40,620 nt of DNA from Streptosporangiaceae bacterium (lineage in GTDB: Bacteria > Actinomycetota > Actinomycetes > Streptosporangiales > Streptosporangiaceae): positions 1 through 40,620 of the forward strand of contig DASXJM010000456.1 of assembly GCA_036497405.1 (NCBI GenBank). Direction: 5' to 3'. Each line of letters begins with the position of its first letter. Position 1 is the stretch's first letter. Under the pieces are notes generated by a model. The model was not told the DNA's origin. It saw nothing but the letters and a program-made list of their open reading frames with translations, and ran no database searches. Below, piece by piece: positions 16,362-35,099 of the stretch. Position numbers and translations under genes: made by a program.

Positions 16362-17798
16362 CTAGCCGAGCCTGCGGTCGAGGTCCAGCAGCGCCTGGGT
16401 GAACACCTCGATCGGCGCCACGGCCACGCCCGCGCCGACCTGGCCGCTGCCGTCGGAGTTGTGCAGGATCCCGGTCGTCACCTTGGGCGTGATCCCGAGC
16501 TCGACGACCTTGCGCACGTCGACCCCGACCGGGGAGCCGCGCTGGCCCCAGGTCGGCAGGATGAACCGGGTCGACCGGCCGACGCAGACCAGGTCCAGCT
16601 GCTCGGACAGCCGGGCCGCGTCGGCCATCGTGCCGCCGACCAGCTGGGCCACGGCCGGGGACCCGGCCGCGCAGGCGCCGCCGAGACCGATCAGCTCCAG
16701 CACCGAGCTGTCCCCGATGTCGGGGGCGGCGTCGTCTTCGCTGCGTCCCGGCTGGTAGAGCGCGTCGCCGACCAGCGGGGACGGCGCGTACTGCCAGGAG
16801 CTGCCCGGCCCGGCCAGCCAGGCCGCGAAGCCAGTGCCGTTGCGGCTCATGCCGGCGACGATCGAGCTGTTCTCGACCTGGCCCGCCCACAGGGTGAGGG
16901 TCCGGGCCGCGGCCATGGCCAGGCTCAGGAACAGCAGGTAGTTGGCGGACAGGAAGTCGGCCACCTCACCCCGGCGCGGGTGTGCGCCCCGCACCAGCGC
17001 GGGCAGCAGGGTCCGCAGCAGCAGGTTGGTCGAGGCCTGGGTCCGCACGTGCACGTCGTCGCCCATCGCCACCGCCTGGGCCGCGAACGACAGCACGTTG
17101 AGCGGGCCGGTCGCGGCCAGCGCGTCGGCCAGGACCGGGCCGGCCGCGTCGCGCAGCAGGATCAGCCGCTCGATGGCGCCGGGACTGTCCTTGCCGAACC
17201 AGGCCACATCGCCCGAGCCCTGGCCCAGCGGCGCGTAGGCCTGGAGGCCGGCCTCGGCCAGTTCCACCACCCAGACCGGGGTCCGCGGGCCCATCGCGGT
17301 CGCCATCGGCACCACCGTCTGATGATGGTTGGCCGAGCCGGTCCGCACCTGCCCGGAGGCCAGCAGCTCATCGGCCTGCCCGGGACCGGCGGCCCAGCCC
17401 TCGGCGCAGACCGCCGCCCGCAGGGAGCGCTGGAGCGGGTCGCGGGCGTCGCGGTATTCGATGGGCGGGCCGCTGTGCAGGATGAGCCGCTCGCCGTCCA
17501 GGGCCGGGATGACCTCGGCGGCGGGGCGGACCGTGACCACCTCCGGCACCCCGCGGTCCAGGCGCCGGTACACCTCGGCGTTGGCCGCGTCGATCACCGC
17601 CGCCCGCGGGCCGGACAGCCGCCGCAGGGCCGCCACCACCTCCGGGTCGCCGCCGCCGGGGATGCGCCAGTCGAGCTGGATGACGGGCCGGTCCTGGTCG
17701 GCGATGGCCTGGGCGAACAGGGGCAGCCCGGCATTCAGCACCGATACCTCGTCCGGCAGCCGCACCGGGTGATCGGTCTCGTGGGCGGCGGCGGTCAT
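16362..17798 (-). CDS. DUF1116 (YlbE/AllG-like) protein
   Basis: 478 aa. Blocks matching E. coli YlbE as I recall it are ...ILHSGPP..., ...MGDDVHVRTQAS..., ...PDIGDSSVLELIGLGG... and ...GITPKVTTGILHNSDGSGQVGAGVAVAP.... An ATGA overlap joins it to the upstream lyase gene. Confidence 0.75.
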   Translation of the reverse strand: MTAAAHETDHPVRLPDEVSVLNAGLPLFAQAIADQDRPVIQLDWRIPGGGDPEVVAALRRLSGPRAAVIDAANAEVYRRLDRGVPEVVTVRPAAEVIPALDGERLILHSGPPIEYRDARDPLQRSLRAAVCAEGWAAGPGQADELLASGQVRTGSANHHQTVVPMATAMGPRTPVWVVELAEAGLQAYAPLGQGSGDVAWFGKDSPGAIERLILLRDAAGPVLADALAATGPLNVLSFAAQAVAMGDDVHVRTQASTNLLLRTLLPALVRGAHPRRGEVADFLSANYLLFLSLAMAAARTLTLWAGQVENSSIVAGMSRNGTGFAAWLAGPGSSWQYAPSPLVGDALYQPGRSEDDAAPDIGDSSVLELIGLGGACAAGSPAVAQLVGGTMADAARLSEQLDLVCVGRSTRFILPTWGQRGSPVGVDVRKVVELGITPKVTTGILHNSDGSGQVGAGVAVAPIEVFTQALLDLDRRLG

Positions 17799-19309
17799 CG
17801 CGATTCTCCTTCGGACAGCCCGGCCAGCAGGGTCCGGGCCAGCTGGGTGAGTTCCTCTTCGGCCGCGCCGATGGTGGCGGCGTCGCGGTGGGCCTGGGTC
17901 AGCAGCCGTTCCCCGTGCTGGCGGGTGCGCTCGGCCATGCCCGCGACCACCTGCGGGGCGGCCCCGCCGTCCAGCACCCGGGTCTCCACGATGCCGCGCG
18001 GGTCGAGCACGGTGACCAGGTCGACGTCGTCGAGGTCGAGCCGGGAGCCGTTGTACTCGGCGGCCGCGTCCTGTAGCCGTTCGACGGTCAGGTCCACGCC
18101 CCGGATGCCGTCCCGGCTGGCCTTACGGACGGCGGCCCCCACGATCTGGTAGGCGGTCCGGTAGTCCACGCCGCACTGGCCCATGATGAACTCGGCCAGG
18201 TCGGTCGACTGGCTGTAGCCCGACTCCAGCGCCTGCCACATGCGGGCCGCGTTGACCTCCAGCGTGCTGATCACTCCCGCGGTCAGCCGGGTCGTACGCA
18301 GGGCCAGGTCGAGCGCGCGCGGGACCTCGCCGTAGGCGTAGATGAGGTTGTCGCTGCGGGCCGAGGGGCTCTTGCTGACGGCCAGGAACCCCGACAGGCG
18401 GCCGATCATGGTGCCGGACGCGCCGCGGATGATGGACAGCGAGTAGGGGTTCCGCTTCTGCGGCATCAGCACGCTGGACCGGCTGTAGCCGTCGGCGATG
18501 GAGACGTAGTCGAATTCGTTGCTGGCCCAGATCTCCAGGTCTTCGGCCAGTTTGCTCTGGGTGGTCAGCAGGCTGGACGCGGCCGACATGGCCGCGATCA
18601 GCCCGTCGATCTGCCACATCGCATCGCGGGTGTGCTCGATGAACCCGTCGAACCCGAGCAGGTTGGCCACCCGCGACCGGTCGTGCAGCAGGCGGCTGCC
18701 GTTGACGCACCCGGCCCCACCCGGGCTGAGGTTGATGCCGTCCAGTTCGCCGCGGAGCCGCTCGCCGTCGCGCAGGACCGGATAGGCGAAGCTGACCAGA
18801 TAATGCCCGAAGGTGGATGGCTGGGCGTGCTGCAGATAGGTCTGGTCCGGCAGCCAGGTGCGCGTGTGCTGCCCGGCCAGCCCGGCGATCTCCATGCCCA
18901 GCCGGGCCGCCGCCGCGATCAGGTCGGTCAGTACCCCGCGCAGGTGCAGGCGCAGCGCGATGCGGACCGCCTCCCGGCGCGGGCGGCCCGCGTGCAGCCA
19001 GCCGGCCGCGTCCCCGATCTGCGTGGTGAAGTAGCGCTCGCGGGAGTTGTACGGCTCACCGAACGACGGGTCGTACGGGAACTCCGCCGCCGGGGTGGCC
19101 GCCGCCTGCAGCAGCACGGTCAGCAGCGCGCGGGTGGCCTCGGGCGGGATGACCTTCCGCTCGTGCAGGTCGATGACGTGGGCCAGGTCGGCCAGGTTGA
19201 GGCCGTCGTGCAGCAGCGGCGCGTCCGCGTTCTCCAGGGTGAAGCCGCTGTCGATGAGTTCCTGGGCCGGCCCGCTGACGGGCGGCCCCAGGCGGGCTTG
19301 GGCGGGCAT
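17795..19309 (-). CDS. Argininosuccinate-lyase-like enzyme (fumarate lyase superfamily)
   Basis: 504 aa from ATG 19309, with an aaggagacc Shine-Dalgarno. Superfamily signature: SSVLMPQKRNP. Also ...TYLQHAQPSTFGHYL.... The upstream part of the 624-aa ORF-track entry is Arg/Pro/Gly-rich and overlaps the PLP gene. Confidence 0.8.
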   Translation of the reverse strand: MPAQARLGPPVSGPAQELIDSGFTLENADAPLLHDGLNLADLAHVIDLHERKVIPPEATRALLTVLLQAAATPAAEFPYDPSFGEPYNSRERYFTTQIGDAAGWLHAGRPRREAVRIALRLHLRGVLTDLIAAAARLGMEIAGLAGQHTRTWLPDQTYLQHAQPSTFGHYLVSFAYPVLRDGERLRGELDGINLSPGGAGCVNGSRLLHDRSRVANLLGFDGFIEHTRDAMWQIDGLIAAMSAASSLLTTQSKLAEDLEIWASNEFDYVSIADGYSRSSVLMPQKRNPYSLSIIRGASGTMIGRLSGFLAVSKSPSARSDNLIYAYGEVPRALDLALRTTRLTAGVISTLEVNAARMWQALESGYSQSTDLAEFIMGQCGVDYRTAYQIVGAAVRKASRDGIRGVDLTVERLQDAAAEYNGSRLDLDDVDLVTVLDPRGIVETRVLDGGAAPQVVAGMAERTRQHGERLLTQAHRDAATIGAAEEELTQLARTLLAGLSEGESR

Positions 19310-20367
19310 CAGGTCTCCTTCGCGGCGGCTTCGTCGACGGCGTCGAGCAGTCCACCGGTGTGCCAGAAAATCGTGGTCAGGCCGGGATCGGCGGCGGTCC
19401 CGCCGAGGATCGCGGGCAGCGCGGCCAGGGCCTTGGCCGTGTACACCGGATCGAGCACCAGCCCCGCCGTCCGCAGCGCCAGCCGCGCCGCCGCCCGCCC
19501 CTGGGCCGAGGCGAGCCCGTGCCCGGGGCCGCGGCCGTCGGTCAGCTCGACGTCGTCCGGGCCCGGCGCCGGGGTCCCCAGCTGCCGGGCACAGCCGGTG
19601 GCCATGGCCAGCACCCGCTGGCGGGTCTCGGCGGGAGGCCGCGACACCGACACGCCCGCCAGCCGCCACGGCCGCCCGAGCGCGACGGTCCCCGAGACCA
19701 GCCCGGCCAGCGTGCCCCCGGACCCGGTGGCCGTCACCACCGTCACCCGCCCGCCAGGCCAGCCCGCCTCACTAATCCCACCGGCCCCACCAGCCCCATC
19801 AGTTAGCTGGCGCGCCAACTCGGCGGCGGCCCAGTGGAAACCAGCCGCGGACCGGGCGGTGGCGCCGCCGCGCGGGATCGGGAACGGGCGCTCGCCCGCG
19901 GCTTCGAGCCGGGCCGCGGCCTGGGCGATCCCGGCGTCGACCGACTCGCGGTCCGGATCGCCGGTGAACACGACCTCGGCCCCCCAGTGCCGGGCCAAGG
20001 CCAGGTTGGGATGCTCCTGCTCCGGCGCGGTCCCGGCGTAGACCAGCAGCGCGGGCAGACCTGCGTGGGCCGCGGCCGCCACCGCCGCGGCCGCGAAGTT
20101 GGACCCGGTGGCGCCGCCGGTGACGATGACCGTGGCCGCCGTGGCCGCCGCGTCGGCCAGCAGCACCTCCAGCGGCCGGGCCTTGTTGCCGGCCACCGCG
20201 AACCCGGTCAGGTCGTCCCGCTTGACCAGCAGCGGGCCCGCCAGGCCCAGCGCCGCGGCCAGCCGCGGGGCCGGGGTCAGCGGGGTGGGCAGCACCGCCA
20301 GCGGCCAGCGCTCTGGCCCACCCGGCGCACCGGCCGTACCCGGCCCCGCTTCCGTGCTCGACGTCAC
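19309..20367 (-). CDS. PLP-dependent enzyme of the ACC deaminase / D-cysteine desulfhydrase / L-cysteate sulfo-lyase family
   Basis: 352 aa from GTG 20367, which forms a GTGA overlap with the upstream gene. It has ...LLVKRDDLTGFAVAGNKARPLEVLL... (the GNK lysine motif), a Gly-rich ...TATGSGGTLAGL... loop, and ...LDPVYTAKALAAL.... Confidence 0.7.
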   Translation of the reverse strand: MTSSTEAGPGTAGAPGGPERWPLAVLPTPLTPAPRLAAALGLAGPLLVKRDDLTGFAVAGNKARPLEVLLADAAATAATVIVTGGATGSNFAAAAVAAAAHAGLPALLVYAGTAPEQEHPNLALARHWGAEVVFTGDPDRESVDAGIAQAAARLEAAGERPFPIPRGGATARSAAGFHWAAAELARQLTDGAGGAGGISEAGWPGGRVTVVTATGSGGTLAGLVSGTVALGRPWRLAGVSVSRPPAETRQRVLAMATGCARQLGTPAPGPDDVELTDGRGPGHGLASAQGRAAARLALRTAGLVLDPVYTAKALAALPAILGGTAADPGLTTIFWHTGGLLDAVDEAAAKET

Positions 20368-21566
20368 GGCCACTGGTCCGGCTCCTGCTCCCGGGCCCGC
20401 CGGGCCCGGCTGATGACCAGGTCGACGATCTGCGGGGCGGCCCCCGGGTCGGACGGGTTGCTGGTCGAGCCGAGGTAGGTGGCCACGTTGGCTGCCATCT
20501 TCTCCTCGTTCACCTCGAGTCCTTCGGCCAGCGCGATGGCGATCTGCAGGGCCTGGCCGGTCAGCAGGCAGACCTCGGGCAGCGCGGGCCACTCGGCCTT
20601 CCAGGTCCGGCCGTCCCGCTCGTGCTCACCGACCAGCCCTTCCATCAGCACGCCCGCGTTGACCCGGACCATCCGGGCCAGCGTGGCCAGGTGCTCGCTG
20701 CCTTCGGGGTTCCGTTTGTGACCCATGGTGATGGAGCCGATGACCGTGCTGGCCCGGGGCTCGCCCAGCTCTCCGATCTCCGGCCGCTGCAGCTCGTAGA
20801 CCTCGGTGCCGAACCGGGCCAGCGTGCCCGCGATCATGGCCAGCACGCCGCCGAACTCCGCGATCCGGTCGCGGGTGGCCAGCCAGGAGATGACCGGGTC
20901 GGCCAGGTCCAGGTCGGCGCAGAACGAGGCCCGGATGTCCAGTCCGGCCGGGCCGAACGCGGCCAGCGTGCCGATGCCGCCGCCGAGCTGGCCGACCAGC
21001 CAGCGCGGCGCCCCCTCGCGCAGCCGGTCCAGGTGCCGGCGCACCTCGTCGGCCCAGGTGGCCGCCTTCCAGCCGAACGTGGTGGGTGCTCCCGGCTGGC
21101 CGTGGGTCCGGCCGCAGATGAGCGTGTCCCGGTACCGGGCGGCCAGGCTGAGCAGCAGGTCCTCCAGCATGCGCAGGTCCCGCCAGCACGCGCCGCCCAC
21201 TGTCCGCAGGGCCAGGCTGGTCCAGGTGTCGGTGACGTCCTGGACGGTGGTGTCCCGGTACACGTATTCGGCCGCGGCCGGCGACAGCACCCGGCGCAGC
21301 TCCAGGATCAGCCCCTGGGTCGAGTGCCCGGTGATCCGGGCCCCCTCCGCGACCCGGTCCAGGTCCAGCCGGCCGACGGTGGCCTCGGCGGTGATCGCCG
21401 CGGCCGCCTCGGCCGGGATGAAGCCGTGGGCGGCCTGGGCCCGGGCCAGCGCGGCCAGCACGGTGAGCCAGCCCTGCACCCGGCCTTCCTCGTTGAACAC
21501 CTCCCGCAGTTCCGCGGTGCCCCACAGGTGGGCGTAGGACAGCGAATCCGTGATGCGTGCGTTCAC
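20364..21566 (-). CDS. Adenylosuccinate-lyase / 3-carboxymuconate-cycloisomerase-like enzyme (fumarate lyase superfamily, deviant signature)
   Basis: 400 aa. It has ...LWGTAELREVF..., ...GRTHGQPGAPTTFGWK... and the signature GSITMGHKRNP, where the canonical form is GSSxMPxKxNP. A GTGA overlap joins it to the upstream gene. Confidence 0.75.
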   Translation of the reverse strand: MNARITDSLSYAHLWGTAELREVFNEEGRVQGWLTVLAALARAQAAHGFIPAEAAAAITAEATVGRLDLDRVAEGARITGHSTQGLILELRRVLSPAAAEYVYRDTTVQDVTDTWTSLALRTVGGACWRDLRMLEDLLLSLAARYRDTLICGRTHGQPGAPTTFGWKAATWADEVRRHLDRLREGAPRWLVGQLGGGIGTLAAFGPAGLDIRASFCADLDLADPVISWLATRDRIAEFGGVLAMIAGTLARFGTEVYELQRPEIGELGEPRASTVIGSITMGHKRNPEGSEHLATLARMVRVNAGVLMEGLVGEHERDGRTWKAEWPALPEVCLLTGQALQIAIALAEGLEVNEEKMAANVATYLGSTSNPSDPGAAPQIVDLVISRARRAREQEPDQWP

Positions 21567-22477
21567 CGGGTCCCGCCCGCCAGGTCAGCGGCGGCCCGCA
21601 GCCCGTCGGCGACGAGGTCGAAGGAGGCGCCCCAGGGCACGACCACGGTGTCGCCGCGGGTCTCGATGTGGGTTTCCAGCAGGCAGCACTTGGTCAGCCG
21701 GACCTCACCGGCCGGGACCGGGGAATCCGCCGCCAGCCGGGCCGGGCACATGTCGATCTGCCGCAGCGACGCGGCCTGGTCCGGGTAGAAGTGGTCGTGG
21801 ATGGCCCGGGAGCGGGCGCAGCCGATCAGCACCCAGCCGGGATCGGGCGGCGGGACCTCGTCCAGGTAGGAGATGGTGGCCCCCGGGACCCGCGCCCCGC
21901 CACCCCGGCAGGGCAGCAGGTAGTGGCGGGCCGGCTCGGCCTGGGCCAGTTCCTGCAGGTCGATGACTTCGGCCCGGGTCAGCACCGCGGGCAGGCTCTC
22001 GGCCGTGCCGAGCAGCCGGTCGACCTGGTCGCAGAACTTGGCCGGCCAGGGCGGGGCCACGTCCAGCACGTGCACCACGGCCGGGTCGGAGTCGAGCACG
22101 AAGTTGACGTGCTCGTACCGGCCCTTGACCACCACGCACCGGTGACCAGGGAACTCGGCCGCGACCCGGGCCAGCTGGCTGGGCACCGCGGTGTCGATGT
22201 CCGGCCTGGTCACCATGATCGTTTCGGCCGGGCCAGCCAGCCGGGTCACCGTGGAAACCGGGCGGAACAGGGAGTCGTCACGGTCGCCGGACCCCACCGG
22301 AGCGACCTTCGATATATCCACCTCGGCCAGCGCCACCTGGTCGCCCGAGCAGGCGATCACGAACCTCGTCCGCCGGTAGACGTCGTGGCCGGCGAACCAG
22401 TCCGCCAGCGATTCGGGGGACAGGTCGCCGCCGATGCTGGTGAAGGCCACGGTCCGGTACTGGCCGGGGATCAGCAT
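21563..22477 (-). CDS. Conserved-looking hypothetical protein (304 aa), family not recognised
   Basis: ATG 22477 overlaps the ComA-like stop (TGATG). The ORF is strongly GC3-rich and sits inside a translationally coupled operon. The 692-aa ORF-track entry extends it artefactually through the ComA-like gene in another frame. Confidence 0.6.
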   Translation of the reverse strand: MLIPGQYRTVAFTSIGGDLSPESLADWFAGHDVYRRTRFVIACSGDQVALAEVDISKVAPVGSGDRDDSLFRPVSTVTRLAGPAETIMVTRPDIDTAVPSQLARVAAEFPGHRCVVVKGRYEHVNFVLDSDPAVVHVLDVAPPWPAKFCDQVDRLLGTAESLPAVLTRAEVIDLQELAQAEPARHYLLPCRGGGARVPGATISYLDEVPPPDPGWVLIGCARSRAIHDHFYPDQAASLRQIDMCPARLAADSPVPAGEVRLTKCCLLETHIETRGDTVVVPWGASFDLVADGLRAAADLAGGTR

Positions 22478-23340
22478 CACGCCGCTCCTCCGGGCCGGCC
22501 CGGACCGTCCAGGTTCGTATCGACCGTGTCCGCGCGCAGCCCCAGGCGAAGCGTCTCCACCGACAGGGCCGCGCCCGGGCGGACGTTGCCGAGGTTCACG
22601 TTGGCCCCGTAGCGGCGGATCAGCCAGGTCTGCTGGGCCCGCTGCGGCGCCTCGAACAGCACCCGGTCGGCGCCGATCGCCGCCACCACCGCCGCCACCA
22701 CGTCGGCCCGGACCGAGCCGTCCGGCTCGTACAGGCCGACGGTTCCGCTTTCGCGTCCCTCGGTGACGACGTAATCGGCGCCGGCCTCCAGGTCGGCCTC
22801 GGCGTCGGCCGCCCACTGCCCGGCCAGGACGGAGGCGTCGGCGTCCTTGCGGCCGATCTCGGCCAGCACCCCGAACCGCTGGGCGGCCACGCCGATCAGG
22901 CCGGACTTCTCGGCCCGGGTCAGCTCGACGGTGCCGCAGGACACCTCCACGCACGGGAAGCCGACCGCCATCGCCCAGTCCAGGAACGGGCTGACCGCGC
23001 CCTGGGCCCACGCGATCTCCAGCAGGGTGCCGCCGGTGCAGGCGCGGACCCCGTGCTGCTCCAGCAGGTCGAGCTTCTCCTCCAGGTTCTGATCGACGTA
23101 GGCCGTGCCCCAGCCGAACTTCCAGATGTCGATCAGCGGCCCGGCCACGGCCAGGTGCTGGCGGGCCTCGGGGACCGACATCCCGTCGTCCAGCACGTGC
23201 AGCAGCCCGGAGGCCCTGGGTTTCACGGTCCGGGCCGGCAGGGCCAGGAAGCCGGGCGTGCGCAGCCCCGGCCCCGGTTCCGGCCCCAGCCGGACGCTGG
23301 GCGGCACGGTGATACATTGCGCCGGTGCCTGCTCCGTCAT
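22477..23340 (-). CDS. Phosphosulfolactate synthase (ComA) family protein
   Basis: It has ...LPARTVKPRASGLLHVLDDG...IDIWKFGWGTAYV...FPCVEVSCGTVEL...AEIGRKD...ADYVVTEGRESG...LIRRYGANVNLGNV.... ATG 23340 is preferred. Alternative starts lie at 23352 and at GTG 23307. Confidence 0.75.
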   Translation of the reverse strand: MTEQAPAQCITVPPSVRLGPEPGPGLRTPGFLALPARTVKPRASGLLHVLDDGMSVPEARQHLAVAGPLIDIWKFGWGTAYVDQNLEEKLDLLEQHGVRACTGGTLLEIAWAQGAVSPFLDWAMAVGFPCVEVSCGTVELTRAEKSGLIGVAAQRFGVLAEIGRKDADASVLAGQWAADAEADLEAGADYVVTEGRESGTVGLYEPDGSVRADVVAAVVAAIGADRVLFEAPQRAQQTWLIRRYGANVNLGNVRPGAALSVETLRLGLRADTVDTNLDGPGRPGGAA

Positions 23341-27025: not shown

Positions 27026-27090
27026 ACTTCTAGGGCGTTCGGACGAGAACATCTCAGGCGTTCGGCCGGCTGGTGGAAAGGTTCGGTGAA

Positions 27091-28062: not shown

Positions 28063-29735
28063 GCGCCGACCCGCCGGGCGCCCCCAGCGCCGCCCCGCCG
28101 GCCACCCCCACCGCGACCGCCCCCAGCGCCGACCGGCCGGCCCACCACGCGGCCCGGACGATCTCCGATACCTACGCCGACTCCATGGTCCTGCTGGTGG
28201 CGACCTCGGTGATGTCCGGCCAGCCGGGCATCGGGTGGGCCGGGGCGGTGATGGCCACCCCGGCCGCGCTGGGTGACCTGGCCGAGCAGGGCTTCGCGCC
28301 CGCCGACCTGGCCGAGGCCCACGCCAACGACCTGGTCCTGGCGGTGCACGCGGCCGACGAGGGCCAGGCCGAGGCGGCCCTGGCCGCCGGGACGGATTCG
28401 ATCTTCAGCGCGACCCGCCCCGGCGGCAACGGCGGCAACGGCGGCAACGGCACGGAAGGCGGCCCCCGGCACGACGCCCCGCGCACCATCGAAGCCGCGG
28501 CCGAACTCGCCCCCCGCGCCAACGTGGCCATCGTCTCCGTGCCCGGCCCCTACGCCGCCCTCGAGGCCCATCACGCGCTCACGGCCGGCCTGCACGTCCT
28601 GCTGTTCAGCGACAACGTGCCGCTGGCCGAGGAGATCGAGCTCAAGCAGCGCGCCACCGAACTCGGCCTGCTGGTCATGGGTCCGGGCGCGGGCACCGCG
28701 GTGCTGGCCGGCACCGGGCTCGGCTTCGCCAACGTCCTGCGCCGCGGGCCGGTGGGCGTGGTCGCGGCCGCGGGCACCGGGGCCCAGGAGGTCTCGGCGC
28801 TGCTGGACCGCTGGGGCGTGGGCGTGTCCCAGGTGATCGGCGTGGGCGGGCGCGACCTGTCCGCCGAAGTCGGGGGCCGGATGGCCGTCGCCGCCGTGCG
28901 GGCTCTCGACGCCGACCCCGATACCCAGGCCATCCTGATCGTGTCCAAGCCGCCGGACCCGGCCGTGGCCAAGCTGGTGCTCGAACAGTGCGCCGGCACC
29001 CCGGCCGTCGCCGTCTTCCTCGGCGTCACCGACCTCACCCAGCCCGCCGGGACCCAGCCCGCCGGAACCCAGCCCCCCCAAAGCCAGCTCTCCCGCACGC
29101 TGGAGGCGGGCGCGATCGCCGCCGCCCGCCTGACCGGCGGAACCCCCCCGAATCCCGCCCACCACCTGGCCGACCACGCGGCTCGGGCCGCGGCCCGCCT
29201 GCCCGAGCAGCGCCGCACGATCCGCGGGTTCTACTCCGGCGGAACACTCTGCTACGAGGCCCAGCTGATCATCTCCGGCCTGCTCGGCCCGGTGTACTCC
29301 AACGAGCCGCTGGTCCACGAGAACACCGTGCCCGCGCCGCCCGGCAGTCACGTGCTGCTCGACCTCGGCGCCGAGGAGTACACCGTCGGCCGGCCGCATC
29401 CCATGATCGACCCGCAGAGCCGGATCGAGATCCTGCGCGCCCAGGCCCGCGAACCCGATGTGGCCGCGGTCCTGCTCGACGTGGTCCTGGGCCACGGATC
29501 GCACGCCGACCCGGCCAGGGAACTCGCTCCGGTGCTGACCGAGATCATGGCCGACGGCGGTCCGCAGGTGGTCGCCTACGTGCTCGGCTCCGGCGGCGAT
29601 TCCCAGGGCTACCAGGACCAGCGGGCCACCCTGGAGGCGGCCGGCTGCCTGGTCACCGAGACCGCGGCCCGGGCCGCCTACCTGGCCGCGGCCATCGCCG
29701 CCCGCAAGCCCGAGCTGGCCGAGCGGCGGGACTGA
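28059..29735 (+). CDS. fdrA: FdrA (AllF-like) family protein, succinyl-CoA-synthetase-alpha-like fold
   Basis: 558 aa from ATG 28059, which forms an ATGA overlap with arcC. It has ...ANVAIVSVPGPYAALEAHHALTAGLHVLLFSDNVPLAEE...LLVMGPGAGTAVL...VGVVAAAGTGAQEV...VIGVGGRDLS.... The 836-aa ORF-track entry is an artefactual N-terminal extension. Confidence 0.8.
   Translation: MSADPPGAPSAAPPATPTATAPSADRPAHHAARTISDTYADSMVLLVATSVMSGQPGIGWAGAVMATPAALGDLAEQGFAPADLAEAHANDLVLAVHAADEGQAEAALAAGTDSIFSATRPGGNGGNGGNGTEGGPRHDAPRTIEAAAELAPRANVAIVSVPGPYAALEAHHALTAGLHVLLFSDNVPLAEEIELKQRATELGLLVMGPGAGTAVLAGTGLGFANVLRRGPVGVVAAAGTGAQEVSALLDRWGVGVSQVIGVGGRDLSAEVGGRMAVAAVRALDADPDTQAILIVSKPPDPAVAKLVLEQCAGTPAVAVFLGVTDLTQPAGTQPAGTQPPQSQLSRTLEAGAIAAARLTGGTPPNPAHHLADHAARAAARLPEQRRTIRGFYSGGTLCYEAQLIISGLLGPVYSNEPLVHENTVPAPPGSHVLLDLGAEEYTVGRPHPMIDPQSRIEILRAQAREPDVAAVLLDVVLGHGSHADPARELAPVLTEIMADGGPQVVAYVLGSGGDSQGYQDQRATLEAAGCLVTETAARAAYLAAAIAARKPELAERRD
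28422..28448. repeat. 3 x 9-bp tandem repeat (ggcggcaac) inside fdrA
   Basis: Encodes GGNGGNGGN in a linker. Confidence 0.85.
29037..29075. repeat. 2.6 x 15-bp tandem repeat (acccagcccgccggg) inside fdrA
   Basis: Encodes TQPAGTQPAGTQP in a linker. Confidence 0.85.
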
Positions 29736-29737
29736 AC

Positions 29738-30931
29738 ATGGCCACTCCGGCGCCGGTCGCGCTGATCACCTACAGCACCAAACCGCGCGGCGGCGTCAGC
29801 CACACCCTCGCGCTCGGCGAGGCCCTGCACGCCCACGGCTACCCGGTGCTGATCGTCGGCCTGGGCGGCCCGGCCCAGGGCTTCTTCCGCCCGGTGGCCG
29901 CGCCCACGCTGATCGTCCCCGCGCCCGCCCCGCCGCCGGACGGCGGACTGGAAGCCAAGGTCGACGCCAACATCGATGCCCTGGAAGCGGCCCTCGGCGA
30001 CGTCGCCGCCCGCTACCCGATTCTGCACGCCCAGGACTGCATCTCGGCCCGGGCCGCCGCCCGGGTCCGCGACGCCACCACCGCCGCCCGCCCCACCGTG
30101 GTCCGGACCGTCCACCACGTCGACGACTTCGACACCGAGAAGCTGATGGACTGCCAGCGCCAGGCCATCCTGGAGCCCGACCACGTGCTGGTGGTGAGCC
30201 GGGTCTGGCAGCGGATCCTGGCCGGCGACTACGGCGTCCAGGCCGAACTGGCCGGGAACGGGGTGACCGTCGAGCGGTTCGCCACCGCCGACCCCGGCCT
30301 GGTCCGGCGGCTGCGCCAGCAGGTGGCCCCGGCCGGGCCGCTCATCCTGTCCGTCGGCGGCATCGAGCCCCGCAAGGGCACCGACACCCTGGTCCGCGCC
30401 CTGGCCCGCCTCTGCCGAGCCGCCGCCCCCCAAGGAGCCCAGCCCCCGGTCCTGGCCGTCATCGGCGGCCACTCCTTCCAGGACCACCGCTGGTACCGGG
30501 ACCAGGTCCTGGCCGAACTCCCCGCCCTCGGCCTGACCGCCGGACCAGGCCACGACGTCGTCGAGCTGGGCACGATCCCCGACGAAGAGATCCCGGCCTG
30601 GTACCAGGCCGCCGACGTGCTCGCCTTTCCCTCGACCAAGGAAGGCTTCGGCCTGGCCCCCCTGGAAGCCATGGCCGCCGGCACCCCGGCCATCGTCAGC
30701 GACCTGCCGGTCTTCGCCGAGTGGCTGCAGCCGGGCCGGGACGCCCTCCAGGTCCCGGTCGGCGACGACGTGGCCCTGGCCGCCGCCCTCGACCGGGTGC
30801 TGACCAACGAGAACCTGGCCGCCCGCCTGCGCGCGGCCGGCCAGCGGCTGGCCCGCCAGCACACCTGGGCCGCGGAAGCCGGCCGCCACCAGGGGCTCTA
30901 CGAGCTCTTCACCACGACGGTCCGGCACTGA
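29738..30931 (+). CDS. GT4-type glycosyltransferase, MSMEG_0565-like
   Basis: 397 aa. It has ...VALITYSTKPRGGVSHTLALGEAL... and the C-terminal GT-B motif ...FPSTKEGFGLAPLEAMAAGTPAIVSD.... The ATG lies 2 nt after the fdrA stop. Confidence 0.75.
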   Translation: MATPAPVALITYSTKPRGGVSHTLALGEALHAHGYPVLIVGLGGPAQGFFRPVAAPTLIVPAPAPPPDGGLEAKVDANIDALEAALGDVAARYPILHAQDCISARAAARVRDATTAARPTVVRTVHHVDDFDTEKLMDCQRQAILEPDHVLVVSRVWQRILAGDYGVQAELAGNGVTVERFATADPGLVRRLRQQVAPAGPLILSVGGIEPRKGTDTLVRALARLCRAAAPQGAQPPVLAVIGGHSFQDHRWYRDQVLAELPALGLTAGPGHDVVELGTIPDEEIPAWYQAADVLAFPSTKEGFGLAPLEAMAAGTPAIVSDLPVFAEWLQPGRDALQVPVGDDVALAAALDRVLTNENLAARLRAAGQRLARQHTWAAEAGRHQGLYELFTTTVRH

Positions 30932-30946: not shown

Positions 30947-31519
30947 TCACTCCATCCGCAGCGCCATCCAGATGGCGGTGGCCAGCTCGTCGCCCGGGTT
31001 GCGCCACGAGTGCGGCTGATAGGTGCGGAAGTGGAGCGAGTCGCCCGGCTTGAGCTCGTGCAGCCGGCCGTTGATGGTGAACTCCAGGCGGCCGGACATG
31101 ACGTAGACCAGCTCCTCGCCGCCGTGCGACATCGGCTTGGCCCCGCTGCTGGCGTGCGGCTGCACCTGCGCGAACGCGGCCGCGACCATGAACTCGTCGT
31201 AGGGCCCGGTGATGCCGCCGAGGTGGATGCCGTTGTGCGAGGTGTAGATGTCCGGGCGCTCGCCCGGCCGGGTCACCGCGGTCGGCGGCGCGTGCTCGGG
31301 CTCCTCCACGAAGTAGGCGACCGGCCGCTGCAGGGCGGCCGCGATCTTCAGCAGCGTGGTGATGGTGGGCACCATGTCGCCCTGCTCCATCTTGTGGATC
31401 GTCGCCGCCGAGACGTCGGCCCGGCTGCCCAGGGCCTGCAGGGACAGCCCGTTCTCGGCACGGAGCGCCTTGATCTTCGGGCCTATGCCCGAGACCACCT
31501 TGTGCAGCTCATCGTTCAT
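30947..31519 (-). CDS. XRE-family HTH regulator with C-terminal cupin domain
   Basis: It has ...IKALRAENGLSLQALGSRADVSAATIHKMEQG... (HTH_3) and ...HGGEELVYVMSGRLEFTINGRLHELKPGDSLHF... (cupin). Confidence 0.85.
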   Translation of the reverse strand: MNDELHKVVSGIGPKIKALRAENGLSLQALGSRADVSAATIHKMEQGDMVPTITTLLKIAAALQRPVAYFVEEPEHAPPTAVTRPGERPDIYTSHNGIHLGGITGPYDEFMVAAAFAQVQPHASSGAKPMSHGGEELVYVMSGRLEFTINGRLHELKPGDSLHFRTYQPHSWRNPGDELATAIWMALRME

Positions 31520-31594
31520 CTAGGCCACCAGCAGGGTCGTGGAGCGGGAGTTTCGCGCAGCTTGAGACGCAGGTTGACGTGCATGCCCACATCA

Positions 31595-31630
31595 ATTAAT
31601 GATAGGAAAATAATGTTGCCTATAGGAAAC
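31595..31630. promoter_or_regulatory. Two adjacent GGAAA(A/C)-ending sites, including the near-palindrome GTTGCCTATAGGAAAC, between the XRE-cupin and flavoprotein genes
   Basis: The first site is attaa-tgatag-gaaaa (31595-31610). The second is gttgc-ctatag-gaaac (31615-31630), which fits the palindrome GTTNCCTATAGGNAAC. ataggaaa is repeated 20 bp apart. A TAATGT -10-like hexamer lies at 31611-31616. Confidence 0.45.
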
Positions 31631-31655
31631 GATGCTTGCTCCCGGCGAGGTTGAC

Positions 31656-33017
31656 ATGGCAAAGCGAATCATAGTTGTCGGCGGCGGCGCGGCCGGGATG
31701 GGCGCGGCCGGAGCGGCCCAGGGCACGGACCCGGAGGCCAAGGTCACCGTGCTGACCAGCTTCGAAGACGCGGCCTACAGCCCGTGCGGCATCCCCTACG
31801 TGCACGGCAAGGAGATCCCCGACTTCGACCGGCTGTTCATGGCCACCAAGCAGCACTACATCGACCAGGGCCTCGACTTCCGCTACGAGACCACGGTGTC
31901 CGCGATCGACACCAGGGCCAAGACGGTCACGCTGGAGTCCGGGGACGTGCTCACCTACGACTCCCTGGTCCTGGCCACCGGCTTCAACTACGCCCCCACC
32001 GGCGTCCCCGGCGAGTCCGGCCCCGGCCTCTACTACGTGAAGAACATCCGCGAGGCCATGGAGTGGGACAAGACCCTCGACTCGGTGCGGAGCGCGGTCG
32101 TCATCGAAGGCGGGCCGCTCGGCGCCGAGATGGTCACCGCCCTGTCCGAACGCGGCATCGAGACCCATCTGGTCGACTCGGCCGCCTGGGCCATGTCGAT
32201 GGCCACCGACCCGGACATCATCAAGCCGGTCGAGGACGAGTGGCGCGAGGCCGGCGTCCACCTGCACTACAGCACCAAGCTCGAGGCCTTCCTGCGCAAC
32301 CCGGACGGGACCCTCCGCGGCGTGGCCACCTCCGACGGTGAGATCGTCGCCGACCTGGCCGTCATCGCCACCCACAAGGTGGCCAACACCGCGCTGGCCA
32401 AGGCGGCCGGGATCAAGCTCGGCATGTCCGGCGGCGTCATCGTCGACGCGGGCATGCAGACCTCGGCCCCCAGCGTGTTCGCCTGCGGCGACGTGGCCGA
32501 GATCCCGCACGGGGTCTCCAACGTGCCGATCCAGGGCCTGTCCGGCAGCCACGCCTACGCCCAGGGCAAGGTGGCCGGCACCCGGGCCGCGGGCGGCGTC
32601 CGCGACTACCGCGCGGTCTACGTGCCCTGGGGCATGATGGCCGGCCAGTCGATGCTGGGCGGCGTGTCGTTCAGCGAGACCCTGGCCACCGCGCTCGGCA
32701 TCGACTACGTGGCCGGGACCGCGACCGGGATCTCCCGGGCCCGCTACTACCCGGGGGTCAAGCCGGTCACGGTCAAGCTGCTGGCCGACCCGAAGACCCA
32801 GCGCCTGATCGGGGCCCAGCTGATCGGCGGTGAGGGCATCAAGGAACGCACCGACTTCCTGGCCATGTGCGTCCGCAAGGGGCTCACCCTCGACGACCTG
32901 GCCACCATGGAGAACGTCTACAGCCCGGGCATCGGCGCGCTCAACGAGCCGATCGCCCTGGCCGCCCAGAAGACGCTGGCCAACCTGGCCGCGGCCACGT
33001 CCAAGACCGGGGCCTGA
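31656..33017 (+). CDS. FAD-dependent pyridine nucleotide-disulfide oxidoreductase (NADH oxidase / CoA-disulfide reductase-like)
   Basis: It has MAKRIIVVGGGAAGMGAA, the redox-Cys motif YSPCGIPY, a second dinucleotide fold VVIEGGPLGAEM, ...FACGDVAE... and a C-terminal dimerisation domain. ATG 31656 is preceded by gagg. Confidence 0.8.
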   Translation: MAKRIIVVGGGAAGMGAAGAAQGTDPEAKVTVLTSFEDAAYSPCGIPYVHGKEIPDFDRLFMATKQHYIDQGLDFRYETTVSAIDTRAKTVTLESGDVLTYDSLVLATGFNYAPTGVPGESGPGLYYVKNIREAMEWDKTLDSVRSAVVIEGGPLGAEMVTALSERGIETHLVDSAAWAMSMATDPDIIKPVEDEWREAGVHLHYSTKLEAFLRNPDGTLRGVATSDGEIVADLAVIATHKVANTALAKAAGIKLGMSGGVIVDAGMQTSAPSVFACGDVAEIPHGVSNVPIQGLSGSHAYAQGKVAGTRAAGGVRDYRAVYVPWGMMAGQSMLGGVSFSETLATALGIDYVAGTATGISRARYYPGVKPVTVKLLADPKTQRLIGAQLIGGEGIKERTDFLAMCVRKGLTLDDLATMENVYSPGIGALNEPIALAAQKTLANLAAATSKTGA

Positions 33018-33021
33018 TCCG

Positions 33022-33279
33022 GTGGCCAGCCTGTTCCAGTGGGTCCGCCAGACCTCCGAACGCCACCTGATGCTCGACGCCCAGGACCGCATCGGCCGCA
33101 AGCTGGGCGCGGGCCGCCCGGCCCGGCCGCGCGGCCGCGAGATCTTCTGGCGGCGGGTCTACGTCCCGGTGTTCCACCGCCTCCCGCCCGGCGTCCGCAA
33201 CGCCATGATCGCCCGCATGCCCGGCAGCCACCGGCAGCGCTGGCCGGCCGAGCCCCCGCCCGCCGGCCCCGCCGTCTAA
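33022..33279 (+). CDS. Small basic conserved-looking protein (85 aa), candidate MSMEG_0570-family member
   Basis: The GTG lies 4 nt after the flavoprotein stop. GC3 is almost uniform. The sequence includes ...REIFWRRVYVPVFHRLPPGVRNAMIARMPGSHRQRW.... The family call rests on position only. Confidence 0.45.
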   Translation: MASLFQWVRQTSERHLMLDAQDRIGRKLGAGRPARPRGREIFWRRVYVPVFHRLPPGVRNAMIARMPGSHRQRWPAEPPPAGPAV

Positions 33280-33324: not shown

Positions 33325-33816
33325 ATGTCCACCAAGACGAACACCATCACGCCGGCGCAAGAGGGCGACGTACTGTACGACACCAGCGAGAAGGTCTTCC
33401 CCGACATCCAGGCCGAGCCGGGCCAGAAGGCCACCGTCTTCATCCACTCGGTTCCGTTCGAGGGCTCGGTCTCGCTGGTCAACCTGATGACCTCGACCCG
33501 GCTGCAGCGCAAGGGCTTCGAGCTCACCATCGTGCTGTACGGCCCGGCCGTGCTGCTGGCCTCCAACACCCGCGGCTTCCCGTCGGTCGGGGCCGAGGGC
33601 TTCCCCGGCAACCTCGCGGTCAACCGCCAGCTCAACGTCCTGCTCAAGGAGGGCGCGTCCATCTACGCCTGCCGGTTCGCCATGGGCGCGCTGTACGGCA
33701 TGCGCGAGGACGACCTGATCCCCGGGGTCAAGGCGTTCAACCCGCTCGACGTGCTCGACGCCGGCCTGACCGCGTGGAAGGAAGGCCACTTCCAGCTCAA
33801 CACCTGGACCGTCTGA
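33325..33816 (+). CDS. MSMEG_0572/Sll0783-like nitrogen-starvation-response protein (DsrE-like fold)
   Basis: 163 aa. It has ...ATVFIHSVPFEGSVSLVNLMTSTRLQRKGFELTIVLYGPAV...IYACRFAMGALYG...NPLDVLDAG.... An aaggag Shine-Dalgarno precedes it. Confidence 0.6.
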   Translation: MSTKTNTITPAQEGDVLYDTSEKVFPDIQAEPGQKATVFIHSVPFEGSVSLVNLMTSTRLQRKGFELTIVLYGPAVLLASNTRGFPSVGAEGFPGNLAVNRQLNVLLKEGASIYACRFAMGALYGMREDDLIPGVKAFNPLDVLDAGLTAWKEGHFQLNTWTV

Positions 33817-34649
33817 TGCCGACGACGCCCTCGCGGCACGTCGACGCCCACCGGCACCTGGGGGTGCTGCCCGCCTTCCCGTTCTACGGCGGGCCGCCGG
33901 TCAACCCCGACACCAGGGCCCGGGCCACGGTCAAGGACCTGATCGCTGACCTCGACGCCGAGGGCACCGAGCGGGCCCTGGTCATCCCGAACTACGGGGT
34001 CCCGCAGCCGGAACACTCGTTCAAGCTCAACGAGCTGGTGCTGGAGGCGGCCGGTGACAACGACCGGCTCCGGGCCGCGATCTGGGCCTCGCCCCGCCCG
34101 CAGGACGCCGAGCTCACCGAAGCCGCGCTCAAGCTGGCCGGCGAGCCCGGGGTCAAGGCGCTGAAGATCAGCTTCCTGCTCGGCGGCTCGGTCGAGGACG
34201 AGGCGGTCCTGGGTCAGCTGGACCAGATCTTCGCCACCGCCCGCCAGCACGACCTGATGGTGCACATCCACACCTCGCCCGGCGGCAGCTCCGACATCAA
34301 CGAGATCGGCAAGCTGGTCGAGCGCTACGGCGACGACAACAAGATCCACCTCGTGCACTTCGGCGGGGGGATGAGCGGCCACATCAAGCTGATCGGCGGC
34401 CGCTTCTTCGACTGGATCACCGCCGGCAAGCAGGTCTACACCGACCTGACCTGGTCGATCGGGTTCGCTCCGTACTGGCTGGCGGCCGAGATCGACCGCC
34501 GCGGCATCGGCGGCGACCGGATCCTGTTCGCCACCGACCAGCCCTGGGGTGACTTCGCCGGCGAATACCACCGCATGATGGAAGCCCTCGGCGACAAGGA
34601 GCTCACCGAGCTGATCTTCCACGGCAATTTCGAGCGCCTCTACGGCTGA
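33816..34649 (+). CDS. Amidohydrolase_2-type metal-dependent hydrolase (TIM barrel)
   Basis: 277 aa. It has the N-terminal HxH motif (VDAHRHLG), then ...VHIHTS..., ...HLVHFGGG... and ...LFATDQPW.... A TGATG overlap joins it to the preceding gene. Confidence 0.7.
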   Translation: MPTTPSRHVDAHRHLGVLPAFPFYGGPPVNPDTRARATVKDLIADLDAEGTERALVIPNYGVPQPEHSFKLNELVLEAAGDNDRLRAAIWASPRPQDAELTEAALKLAGEPGVKALKISFLLGGSVEDEAVLGQLDQIFATARQHDLMVHIHTSPGGSSDINEIGKLVERYGDDNKIHLVHFGGGMSGHIKLIGGRFFDWITAGKQVYTDLTWSIGFAPYWLAAEIDRRGIGGDRILFATDQPWGDFAGEYHRMMEALGDKELTELIFHGNFERLYG

Positions 34650-34657
34650 GCGCCCGC

Positions 34658-34675
34658 AAACACGCCGGAAACACG
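34658..34675. promoter_or_regulatory. Direct repeat AAACACG-n4-AAACACG, containing cggaaacac, upstream of the distal OsmC gene
   Basis: aaacacg lies at 34658-34664 and 34669-34675. The 9-mer cggaaacac (34666-34674) also occurs at 27019-27027. Confidence 0.25.
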
Positions 34676-34691
34676 AAGGCAGGAGGTAGGG

Positions 34692-35099
34692 GTGGGCCGC
34701 GAGCGAACCGCTGACGTCGTCTCGGTGTCGACGGCCGGCTACCAGGCGCGGGTCACCGTCCGCGGCCACGAGCTGACCGTCGACGAGCCCGCCGAAGACG
34801 GCGGCAAGGACACCGGGCCCACCCCCACCGAACTGCTGCTGGCCAGCCTGGCCTCCTGTTACACCCTGGCCCTGCGCTGGGCGGCCAAGCACCGCAACGT
34901 CCCCCTGGGCGACATCAAGGTCGTCGCCCACGGCGCCTACGACGGCCTCAAGTTCGGCCGCATCCATCTGGAAGTCCACGGTGACCTGCCCCCCGGCGAG
35001 GAAGACGCCCTCCTCCGCGACGCCTCCCGCGTCTGCTACGTCTCCAGCACCCTCGCCGCCGGCGTCCCCGTCGACGTCACCCAGGGCCCCTCGGCCTGA
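34692..35099 (+). CDS. OsmC family protein
   Basis: 135 aa. It has ...DTGPTPTELLLASLASCYTLALRW... and ...ASRVCYVSSTL.... The GTG is preceded by aggagg. Confidence 0.8.
   Translation: MGRERTADVVSVSTAGYQARVTVRGHELTVDEPAEDGGKDTGPTPTELLLASLASCYTLALRWAAKHRNVPLGDIKVVAHGAYDGLKFGRIHLEVHGDLPPGEEDALLRDASRVCYVSSTLAAGVPVDVTQGPSA

Follow-up and report, generated by a model that had tools for sequence, protein, structure and literature searches.

The conserved bacterial gene cluster Nit1C is the same assemblage as sll0783-0787, as MSMEG_0565-0572, and as the GlnR-dependent peroxide-resistance operon 'gpr' (Podar 2005, PMC1199592; PMC6039565). Clusters of this type span many phyla, rank in mycobacteria with the genes that nitrogen starvation induces most strongly, and are required for cyanide assimilation in pseudomonads (PMC1199592, PMC6039565). 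The canonical Mycobacterium smegmatis cluster is induced >500-fold by nitrogen starvation via GlnR and confers peroxide resistance (PMC6039565). The locus considered here is an island of 19 contiguous genes at positions 16362-35099 of a 40,620-nucleotide stretch of DNA (the window; contig DASXJM010000456.1, assembly GCA_036497405.1) from a Streptosporangiaceae bacterium. In this island, a Nit1C-type core is joined to homologues of two further described systems, the Xcb pathway of coenzyme M (CoM) synthesis and the AllFGH transcarbamylase.

The five Xcb enzymes of Xanthobacter turn phosphoenolpyruvate (PEP), sulfite, and cysteine into CoM (Wu 2022, PMC9457059). XcbC converts phosphosulfolactate to sulfoacrylate, XcbD adds cysteine to sulfoacrylate, and XcbA, a [2Fe-2S] thioaldehyde reductase, completes the synthesis (PMC9457059). 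AllFGH of E. coli is an oxamate transcarbamylase that operates catabolically with the carbamate kinase AllK (PMC11326118).

The 19 genes are assigned to four modules. Module A is a CoM-type pathway, module B a carbamoyl-phosphate set consisting of a carbamate kinase with AllF- and AllG-type subunits, and module C the Nit1C core, with a radical S-adenosylmethionine (SAM) protein, a GNAT acyltransferase, a PurM-like ATP enzyme, a GT4 glycosyltransferase, and a conserved protein of no assigned family. Module D combines thiol, redox, and C-N hydrolase functions: a helix-turn-helix (HTH)-cupin regulator, a flavoprotein reductase, an 85-aa protein, the DsrE-like MSMEG_0572 protein, an Amidohydro_2 protein, and an OsmC-family protein. 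A single function is strongly argued by the way in which the modules are interwoven, with the glycosyltransferase gene placed behind those of the carbamate kinase and AllF-type subunit, the AllG-type gene ending the Xcb operon, and the partner subunits thereby split. The reading favored here, to which a probability of roughly 45% is given, is that the island works as one functional whole, which would make a sulfonate thiol and then elaborate or use it. That thiol is most likely CoM or a close relative.

The five genes of module A, as judged by sequence comparison, represent a complete, colinear homologue of the bacterial CoM pathway. They lie in one operon in the order ComA-XcbA-XcbD-XcbE-XcbC, identical to that on plasmid pNOCA01 of Nocardioides JS614, a known user of CoM. 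The proteins pair one-to-one with the characterized Xanthobacter XcbB-E at 38-45% identity and with the JS614 set at 39-53%. ComA is 49% identical to its JS614 counterpart, the XcbD-like protein 45% and 53% identical to Xanthobacter and JS614 XcbD, the XcbE-like protein 45% identical to Xanthobacter XcbE, and the XcbC-like protein shows 38% identity with Xanthobacter XcbC and 49% with its JS614 counterpart. Each of the five products has an Xcb model as its best NCBIfam match by a wide margin. For XcbC, XcbD, and XcbE, the lead is 70-170 bits, though the scores fall under their cut-offs. The XcbA homologue, which passes its own cut-off, belongs to a small family (233 representative clusters at E <= 1e-10 among 1.84 billion) and has five Cys positions conserved across 49 homologues. 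The ComA start codon is either 23307 or 23352. The XcbD-like protein ends approximately 50 aa earlier than the JS614 and Xanthobacter proteins. This short form is common to the Streptosporangiales-type loci (L002-L012, L017), and other lineages keep approximately 80 more residues. A frameshift as its cause was rejected, because there is no second high-scoring segment pair and the short form is clade-wide. In JS614 (locus L086), a gene for phosphoadenylyl-sulfate reductase, a source of sulfite, directly follows xcb (12719-13420), with no equivalent in the island.

A preliminary description of this DNA, made from the letters alone, had treated two fumarate-lyase-family proteins, a pyridoxal phosphate (PLP) enzyme, a ComA-like protein, and one "orphan" as assorted extras. 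They are, instead, the five members of this CoM-type set. Its list of about ten extra enzymes was correct as to domains but under-read their identities, which resolve into the Xcb-type set and an AllF/AllG/carbamate-kinase set. It had also proposed that the island may handle carbamoyl, ureido, or amino-acid-derived nitrogen. The carbamoyl part fits the AllF, AllG, and AllK homologues, but the sulfonate-thiol chemistry was missed; once the Xcb set is recognized, the chemistry added to the Nit1C core is that of sulfonate and thiol and not of carbamoyl, ureido, or amino-acid nitrogen only.

Conservation of the island was surveyed with an alignment of the radical SAM protein, scanned against one genome per GTDB species, which returned 493 relatives. 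The best 80 of these (64-93% identity) were analyzed by tblastn with all window proteins, and counts out of 45 refer to the loci with enough flanking DNA. All five Xcb genes are present in 29 of the 45 and at least four in 33, in the same order. The GNAT gene is found in 44/45, the glycosyltransferase (GT) in 42/45, FdrA (the AllF-type subunit) in 38/45, the carbamate kinase (CK) in 37/45, the AIR-synthase-like gene (AIRS) in 35/45, and AllG in 33/45. The recurring order is GT-FdrA-CK, then radical SAM-GNAT, then AIRS, then ComA-XcbA-XcbD-XcbE-XcbC-AllG. Because this order recurs across related loci, the two-strand layout, which had been listed as a difference from the canonical cluster, is no peculiarity of this genome but the normal architecture of the whole clade. 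The same census of radical SAM neighborhoods identifies the extra genes as conserved neighbors. The recurrence of gene set and order in dozens of species-level genomes likewise shows the arrangement to be more than chance.

Carriers include Streptosporangiaceae (the nearest being a metagenome-assembled genome, MAG, at 93%), Nonomuraea, Sphaerimonospora, Microbispora, Aeromicrobium, Frankiales, Geodermatophilus, Blastococcus, Nanopelagicales, Acidimicrobiia, Streptomyces chiangmaiensis, Pseudonocardia aurantiaca, and a Dormiibacterota MAG. Retention of four or more Xcb genes extends over Streptosporangiales, Nocardioidaceae, Frankiales, Geodermatophilaceae, Nanopelagicales, Acidimicrobiia, and further groups. 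In Nonomuraea sp. NPDC048916, an isolate, the run from the regulator to the GNAT gene is contiguous as far as the available sequence extends and takes in at least 15 of the 19 genes; its peripheral module adjoins AllG. A reduced version occurs in Nanopelagicales and relatives (L071, L059, L062, L073, L075); it comprises OsmC, the regulator, the flavoprotein, the small protein, 0572, nitrile hydratase, GT, FdrA, CK, radical SAM, and GNAT, and AIRS, Xcb, and AllG are absent within the available flank. Loci L016, L032, L050/L058, L057, and L059 carry radical SAM proteins 67-70% identical to that of the window, with the same neighboring genes, in MAGs labeled Acidobacteria, Gemmatimonadota, Burkholderiales, Dormiibacterota, and 'Bifidobacterium breve', which points to mis-binning or horizontal transfer.

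Membership in the Nit1C core was assessed by NCBIfam profile scans against curated cut-offs, with Pfam scans alongside, and the canonical clusters of Agrobacterium vitis pAt and Rhodococcus sp. NJ-530 served for comparison. The radical SAM, GNAT, glycosyltransferase, and MSMEG_0572 proteins all score above their cut-offs, in agreement with their initial identification. The assignment of the PurM-superfamily protein as sll0787-type holds as a best match but remains under the TIGR04049 cut-off; the protein is 35% identical to the A. vitis Nit1C AIR-synthase-like protein and has an alternative start at 23436. The radical SAM protein, 45% identical to that of A. vitis, contains a C-x8-C-x2-C motif (Cys 122, 131, 134) and a C-terminal C-x2-C-x2-C motif (Cys 347, 350, 353). 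The census and the family tests agree with the earlier proposal of a single, larger variant of the MSMEG_0565-0572 cluster that lacks a nitrilase, and they show this variant to be conserved. A literature search by family name, and by CoM, Nit1C, nitrile hydratase, and carbamate kinase in combination, returned no description of the composite, in keeping with the claim that the variant is undescribed.

The unassigned protein of module C (g10) has no Pfam or NCBIfam match. It matches a profile hidden Markov model (HMM) of its positional equivalents from 34 loci at E 1e-37, and its family, the largest group among the clustered open reading frames of related loci without a window counterpart, is specific to this variant. 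Its AlphaFold model is confident (pLDDT 84.5), with no fold match in the PDB at E <= 0.001. The possibility that it is a missing AllH was rejected: it has no Pfam DUF2877 match, the g10-family HMM hits E. coli AllH only at E 0.28, and both proteins occur in locus L048.

The carbamoyl-phosphate module is recognizable by its kinase, which passes the PRK12352 cut-off (arcC model, 303.5 bits against a cut-off of 358) and is 37% identical to E. coli AllK, and by two subunits related to E. coli AllF (34% identity over 512 aa) and AllG (YlbE; 36%). Residues 503-554, the C-terminal end of E. coli AllF, align to the N-terminus of the island AllG-type protein (17771-17616), and the AllF/AllG boundary is therefore shifted. 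This shift is indirect evidence that the two products interact. Because the transcarbamylase-type subunits lie in different operons, both operons must be expressed for assembly. Six related loci carry an AllH homologue after AllG. The carbamoyl reaction may run in the biosynthetic direction in the island.

The canonical nitrilase was sought by six-frame tblastn with the Nit6803 nitrilase, two Rhodococcus Nit1C carbon-nitrogen hydrolases, and the alpha and beta subunits of nitrile hydratase. One artifact aside, nothing better than E ~0.07 was found for nitrilase or nitrile hydratase in six frames, nor anything better than E 0.18 for three carbon-nitrogen hydrolases of canonical clusters. The artifact is a nitrile hydratase beta match at 33680-33823 (E 1e-8, C-terminus of MSMEG_0572), produced by an over-extended query reading frame that overlaps the MSMEG_0572 gene. 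PF00795 is present in none of the 40 called products of the window, and tblastn detected no remnants or pseudogenes of nitrilase or nitrile hydratase there. The absence of a nitrilase from every frame, noted at the outset, is thus upheld by tblastn and Pfam alike, but the gene has not simply been lost. The position beside MSMEG_0572, occupied by a nitrilase in canonical clusters, holds an Amidohydro_2 protein with an N-terminal H-x-H motif (DAHRH) in the window and nitrile hydratase in sister lineages. In several sister loci, a Co-type nitrile hydratase (VCTLCSC) with a small beta-like accessory protein stands directly after MSMEG_0572, in the order 0572-NHaseB-NHaseA (NHase, nitrile hydratase). 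Among the 80 loci, nitrile hydratase occurs in 15, Amidohydro_2 in 16, and both in none; adjacent carbon-nitrogen hydrolases are found in two. The alternation of nitrilase, nitrile hydratase, and Amidohydro_2 marks this position as a C-N hydrolase slot.

A second replacement involves the canonical 0569 and 0570 proteins, whose place is taken by an unrelated pair, the flavoprotein and the 85-aa protein. The flavoprotein is a single-cysteine reductase of the coenzyme A disulfide reductase (CoADR)/Nox type in which SPCGIPY aligns with the active-site CGLPY of the NoxA-3 and CoADR structures; its identity with the FAD oxidoreductase that adjoins the JS614 xcb operon is 34%. The 85-aa protein had been described as a small partner protein. 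In 20 related loci it is kept beside MSMEG_0572, with the motifs FW and MPGSHR..W retained in 21 sequences, but it has no family match and no similarity to MSMEG_0570. Equating the small protein with MSMEG_0570 and the flavoprotein with MSMEG_0569 was rejected for want of tblastn similarity; no MSMEG_0570 homologue was detected in any frame of the window and no MSMEG_0569 homologue in the island. An MSMEG_0569-like flavin oxidoreductase is encoded 14 kb outside the island (882-2570, minus strand; TIGR04046 341.6 bits, cut-off 498). It is 34-39% identical to canonical Nit1C 0569, adjoins a second OsmC-like gene (882-3030 stretch), and may belong to the system as a detached or paralogous component.

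The MSMEG_0572 protein models as a DsrE-like sulfur carrier. Its AlphaFold model has a pLDDT of 88.3, the nine best Foldseek matches are DsrE/DsrF/YchN-family structures (probability 1.0), and the sequence contains a single invariant cysteine, Cys116. The predicted fold agrees with the YchN assignment of this family (Podar 2005, PMC1199592) and with a remark on DsrE for MSMEG_0572 (PMC6039565). The OsmC-family gene that closes the island has an equivalent in 24/45 loci and is accompanied by a terminator-like hairpin at 35084-35097.

The regulator gene has an equivalent beside the flavoprotein in 13/45 loci. Between the two divergent genes lies a promoter-like site with repeats of ATAGGAAA (31596-31630), conserved in the three closest loci (L002-L004), which is a candidate operator for the regulator and promoter for g15-g19. 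GlnR-box-like motifs number 19 in the window against 16.9 expected by chance, and none is convincing in the island promoter regions. The link to nitrogen starvation drawn in the preliminary description comes from the canonical clusters only (PMC6039565), and the motifs in the window stay at chance level. The only plausible nitrogen-regulation signal seen lies outside the island, where an AmtB ammonium transporter gene (9392-10696, minus strand), 5.7 kb upstream, is preceded at approximately 130 bp by a one-mismatch GlnR-box-like site, GAAACGTCGCTGAAAC (10825-10840).

Because the window is approximately 72% G+C, its genes were called by codon bias, and the 19 island genes match the earlier coordinates exactly (Table 1). 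They were previously divided into five units on both strands; both strands are indeed used, but the units number six. Gene packing within units is tight, with 4-bp stop/start overlaps at g2/g1, g5/g4, g6/g5, g9/g8, and g11/g12, 1-bp overlaps at g3/g2 and g17/g18, and a 2-bp gap at g12/g13, consistent with translational coupling. A search of the window for structured RNAs (Rfam) and tRNAs returned none.

Table 1. Genes and one candidate regulatory site of the island, in window coordinates. Scores are in bits, with curated cut-offs in parentheses; units are numbered along the window, and unit 1 runs from g6 to g1, unit 3 from g10 through g9 to g8.
Feature	Position	Strand	Unit	Module	Assignment	Evidence
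g1	16362..17798	-	1	B	AllG-type (DUF1116) subunit, last of Xcb operon	Pfam AllG PF06545 195 (27)
g2	17795..19309	-	1	A	XcbC-like, aspartase/fumarase family	NF052535 430.8 (575); next best argH 263
g3	19309..20295	-	1	A	XcbE-like PLP enzyme	NF052537 249.7 (450); next best CuyA 179
g4	20364..21566	-	1	A	XcbD-like, adenylosuccinate-lyase family	NF052536 518.5 (600); next best 358
g5	21563..22480	-	1	A	XcbA family (DUF7714)	NF052538 263.7 (150), pass; Pfam DUF7714 260
g6	22477..23352	-	1	A	Phosphosulfolactate synthase ComA/XcbB, first of Xcb operon	Pfam ComA 262 (25)
g7	23325..24299	+	2	C	sll0787-type AIR-synthase-like (PurM superfamily)	TIGR04049 243.9 (321.3), best match
g8	24307..24825	-	3	C	MSMEG_0567/Sll0786 GNAT acyltransferase	TIGR04045 105.8 (68.45), pass
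g9	24822..25985	-	3	C	MSMEG_0568-family radical SAM	TIGR04043 393.5 (303.7), pass
g10	26136..26966	-	3	C	Conserved protein, no assigned family	Upstream of radical SAM gene, same strand
g11	27073..28062	+	4	B	Carbamate kinase, first of CK-FdrA-GT operon	PRK12352 281.6 (266), pass
g12	28059..29735	+	4	B	FdrA/AllF-type subunit (succinyl-CoA-synthetase-alpha-like)	NF004760 394.8 (433)
g13	29738..30931	+	4	C	MSMEG_0565-family GT4 glycosyltransferase	TIGR04047 339.7 (259.85), pass
g14	30947..31519	-	5	D	HTH_3 + cupin regulator (PuuR-like), divergent from g15	Pfam HTH_3, Cupin_2
Site	31574..31630				Promoter-like site, then two ATAGGAAA repeats in near-palindrome	Promoter scan; between g14 and g15
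g15	31632..33017	+	6	D	Single-cysteine CoADR/Nox-type flavoprotein disulfide reductase	TIGR03385 234 (579)
g16	33022..33279	+	6	D	85-aa basic protein, no family	Always between flavoprotein and MSMEG_0572
g17	33325..33816	+	6	D	MSMEG_0572/Sll0783 protein	TIGR04044 191.8 (109.85), pass
g18	33816..34649	+	6	D	Amidohydro_2 metal-dependent hydrolase	PF04909 72
g19	34692..35099	+	6	D	OsmC-family peroxiredoxin-like, last island gene	Pfam OsmC 64.6

Several genes outside the island touch on sulfur metabolism. A sulfur amino-acid operon on the plus strand (3214-6319), with a MetX homoserine O-acetyltransferase, an O-acetylhomoserine/O-acetylserine sulfhydrylase, and a CoA-binding protein in a row, lies close to the island, which would itself consume cysteine. 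At 11574-16358 lie a thiamine pyrophosphate (TPP) enzyme, a cyclase-family protein, a major facilitator superfamily (MFS) transporter, and a MarR regulator that abuts the AllG-type gene. The best match of the TPP enzyme, a weak one, is sulfoacetaldehyde acetyltransferase Xsc (200 bits, cut-off 620). In tblastn against the related loci, the cyclase is matched only in the nearest relatives L002 and L004 and MarR only in L002 and L003; neither the TPP enzyme nor the transporter is matched in any. Directly after the island, a half-length nitrite/sulfite-reductase-like protein of 271 aa (NIR_SIR plus a ferredoxin-like half domain; 35345-36160, plus strand) is encoded; sulfite is the substrate of ComA, yet this gene is not conserved in the related loci. 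An S8 subtilase adjoining an 862-aa TPR-CHAT protein (36145-40179) is unrelated to the island.

From these homologies, we infer the substrates, the carbamoyl direction, and the final product of the sulfonate-thiol reading as follows. Module A would convert PEP, sulfite, and cysteine to 2-mercaptoethanesulfonate or a very close sulfonate thiol. Modules B and C would acylate, carbamoylate, glycosylate, or otherwise elaborate that thiol, or use it as a carrier, the outcome being a derivative that bears nitrogen at the amide or nitrile level. ATP-dependent activation or dehydration of an amide carbonyl may fall to the PurM-like enzyme, and the enzyme in the hydrolase slot would process the C-N group of the derivative. 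The reductase, the DsrE-like protein, and OsmC might keep the thiol/persulfide chemistry reduced or turn it against peroxide, which would match the resistance to peroxide conferred by the canonical M. smegmatis cluster. A precedent for the step proposed for the PurM-like enzyme is cyanide-ligand synthesis by HypF/HypE. There, a thiocyanate-level group arises from carbamoyl phosphate with a thiol and a PurM-type ATP enzyme, HypE, whose target is an S-carbamoyl group that carbamoyl phosphate supplies.

Several observations weigh against this scheme. XcbC, XcbD, XcbE, ComA in its archaeal equivalog model (TIGR03849, 233.8 bits against a cut-off of 280), FdrA, and the AIR-synthase-like protein all score under curated cut-offs, and identical substrates are therefore not established. 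The window contains no CoM-consuming enzyme (epoxyalkane:CoM transferase or 2-ketopropyl-CoM oxidoreductase/carboxylase, 2-KPCC), and AllH (DUF2877), required by the E. coli enzyme, is absent from it (tblastn, E <= 1). A HypE-like dehydration step is proposed by analogy alone, with the island PurM-like protein scoring only 18.5 bits against HypE. Because a Nanopelagicales locus (L071) and several Pseudonocardia loci possess the radical SAM core with no Xcb genes within 10 kb, the link between Nit1C and Xcb is strong but not obligatory.

A catabolic role appears unlikely but accounts for some of the same genes. Under nitrogen starvation, the island would degrade an external ureido, carbamoyl, nitrile, or sulfonate compound, with the C-N hydrolase freeing ammonia, AllF/AllG-type phosphorolysis giving carbamoyl phosphate, the kinase converting this to ATP, NH3, and CO2, and the Xcb-like lyases and PLP enzyme acting on sulfonated amino-acid-like substrates. 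E. coli AllFGH and AllK are indeed catabolic (PMC11326118), the three enzymes that alternate in the hydrolase slot are all hydrolytic, the canonical cluster responds >500-fold to nitrogen starvation via GlnR (PMC6039565), the second-best match of the XcbE-like protein is the D-cysteate sulfo-lyase CuyA, and the ammonium transporter lies 5.7 kb upstream. However, enzymes of the glycosyltransferase, GNAT, radical SAM, and PurM-like kinds typically belong to biosynthetic pathways, and the five Xcb homologues pair one-to-one and in the same order with a biosynthetic pathway. The locus census reveals no conserved transporter in the island, and the chance level of GlnR-box-like motifs also argues against this role.

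It is similarly improbable that the island produces a secreted, sulfonate-containing specialized metabolite (an antibiotic or signal) instead of a cofactor or redox system. Here, the Xcb-like enzymes would give a sulfoacrylate or thiol-sulfonate block for tailoring by the radical SAM, GNAT, glycosyltransferase, and carbamoyl enzymes, and the hydrolase, reductase, and OsmC would provide self-protection. The mix of tailoring-type enzymes is typical of such clusters, the sub-equivalog scores of the Xcb homologues allow an altered product, and a phosphopantetheinyl transferase and a BBE-type oxidase adjoin some related loci. No exporter, nonribosomal peptide synthetase, or polyketide synthase is conserved across the census, however, and the cluster is present in streamlined planktonic lineages (Nanopelagicales, Acidimicrobiia) that have few secondary-metabolite clusters. 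The extreme stability of gene order across classes is also more like that of a housekeeping or stress system. A chance juxtaposition of three operons, for CoM synthesis, carbamoyl-phosphate catabolism, and a decayed Nit1C, can draw on the stand-alone existence of xcb in Xanthobacter and JS614, of E. coli allFGHK, and of canonical Nit1C, and on the lack of Nit1C genes near the xcb operons of known CoM users, but it is very improbable and largely refuted by the census, given an arrangement found in 29-33 of the 45 full-flank loci in different orders and classes, modules mixed within operons (CK-FdrA-GT; AllG ending the Xcb operon), and AllF-/AllG-type partner subunits split between two units.

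This variant attaches to the Nit1C core a sulfite, PEP, and cysteine route to a thiol-sulfonate, a carbamoyl-phosphate module, and interchangeable hydrolases, and it thereby offers the first concrete chemical clue to the role of Nit1C-type clusters. Here, an Xcb-type pathway occurs in dozens of actinobacterial species-level genomes without alkene genes. A broader proposal can be advanced only tentatively: that many Actinomycetota with no alkene oxidation make CoM or a close sulfonate thiol, and that this compound is the missing Nit1C substrate or carrier, on which carbamoyl phosphate, the PurM-like enzyme, and the radical SAM protein would build a carbamoyl-, amide-, or nitrile/thiocyanate-level derivative to be processed by nitrilase, nitrile hydratase, or amidohydrolase. 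If true, this would establish a new bacterial role for CoM and the first chemistry for a cluster whose function has been unassigned since 2005, and the makers of CoM would include abundant soil and freshwater lineages of Actinomycetota. The hypothesis is directly testable because cultured carriers exist, among them Nonomuraea spp., Microbispora hainanensis DSM 45428, Geodermatophilus ruber DSM 45317, Streptomyces chiangmaiensis JCM 16577, and Pseudonocardia aurantiaca JCM 11838.

Among described systems, the Xcb sets of Xanthobacter autotrophicus Py2 and JS614 share with the island the five families, the JS614 order, and the conserved cysteines of the XcbA homologue. The island differs from them in the absence of alkene/epoxide pathway genes and in the AllG-type gene joined to the operon. 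Its xcb genes are embedded in a Nit1C-type cluster, whereas those of Xanthobacter and JS614 lie in an alkene-oxidation plasmid region; the xcb operons of known CoM users have alkene-pathway neighbors and no Nit1C genes nearby. To E. coli AllFGH and AllK, the island corresponds through homologues of AllF, AllG, and the carbamate kinase at 34-37% identity, as well as through the pairing with the kinase; unlike the E. coli system, it comes without AllH or allantoin genes in the window, and its subunits are split over two operons. Mycothiol/bacillithiol-type systems likewise combine a GT4 glycosyltransferase, a GNAT protein, a disulfide reductase, and a thiol peroxidase (MshA/MshD/Mtr-type). The likeness to these and to HypF/HypE is one of functional analogy only, the island having no HypF or MshB/C homologues.

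The closest counterpart is Nit1C itself, with which the island shares the radical SAM, GNAT, GT4, and DsrE/YchN-like MSMEG_0572 proteins and, at the level of a best match, the AIR-synthase-like protein. Canonical Nit1C genes lie on one strand, in A. vitis pAt in the order 0572-nitrilase-radical SAM-GNAT-AIRS-GT-0570-0569, in contrast to the six units on two strands seen here. The Nit6803 nitrilase, MSMEG_0569, and MSMEG_0570 are replaced by non-homologous proteins, yet the corresponding functional slots, a flavoprotein with a small protein and a C-N hydrolase beside MSMEG_0572, are kept. The radical SAM proteins are 42-45% identical to those of canonical Nit1C, as compared with 64-93% within the variant clade, and approximately ten genes extend the island beyond Nit1C: the Xcb set, AllF, AllG, the carbamate kinase, g10, OsmC, and the regulator.

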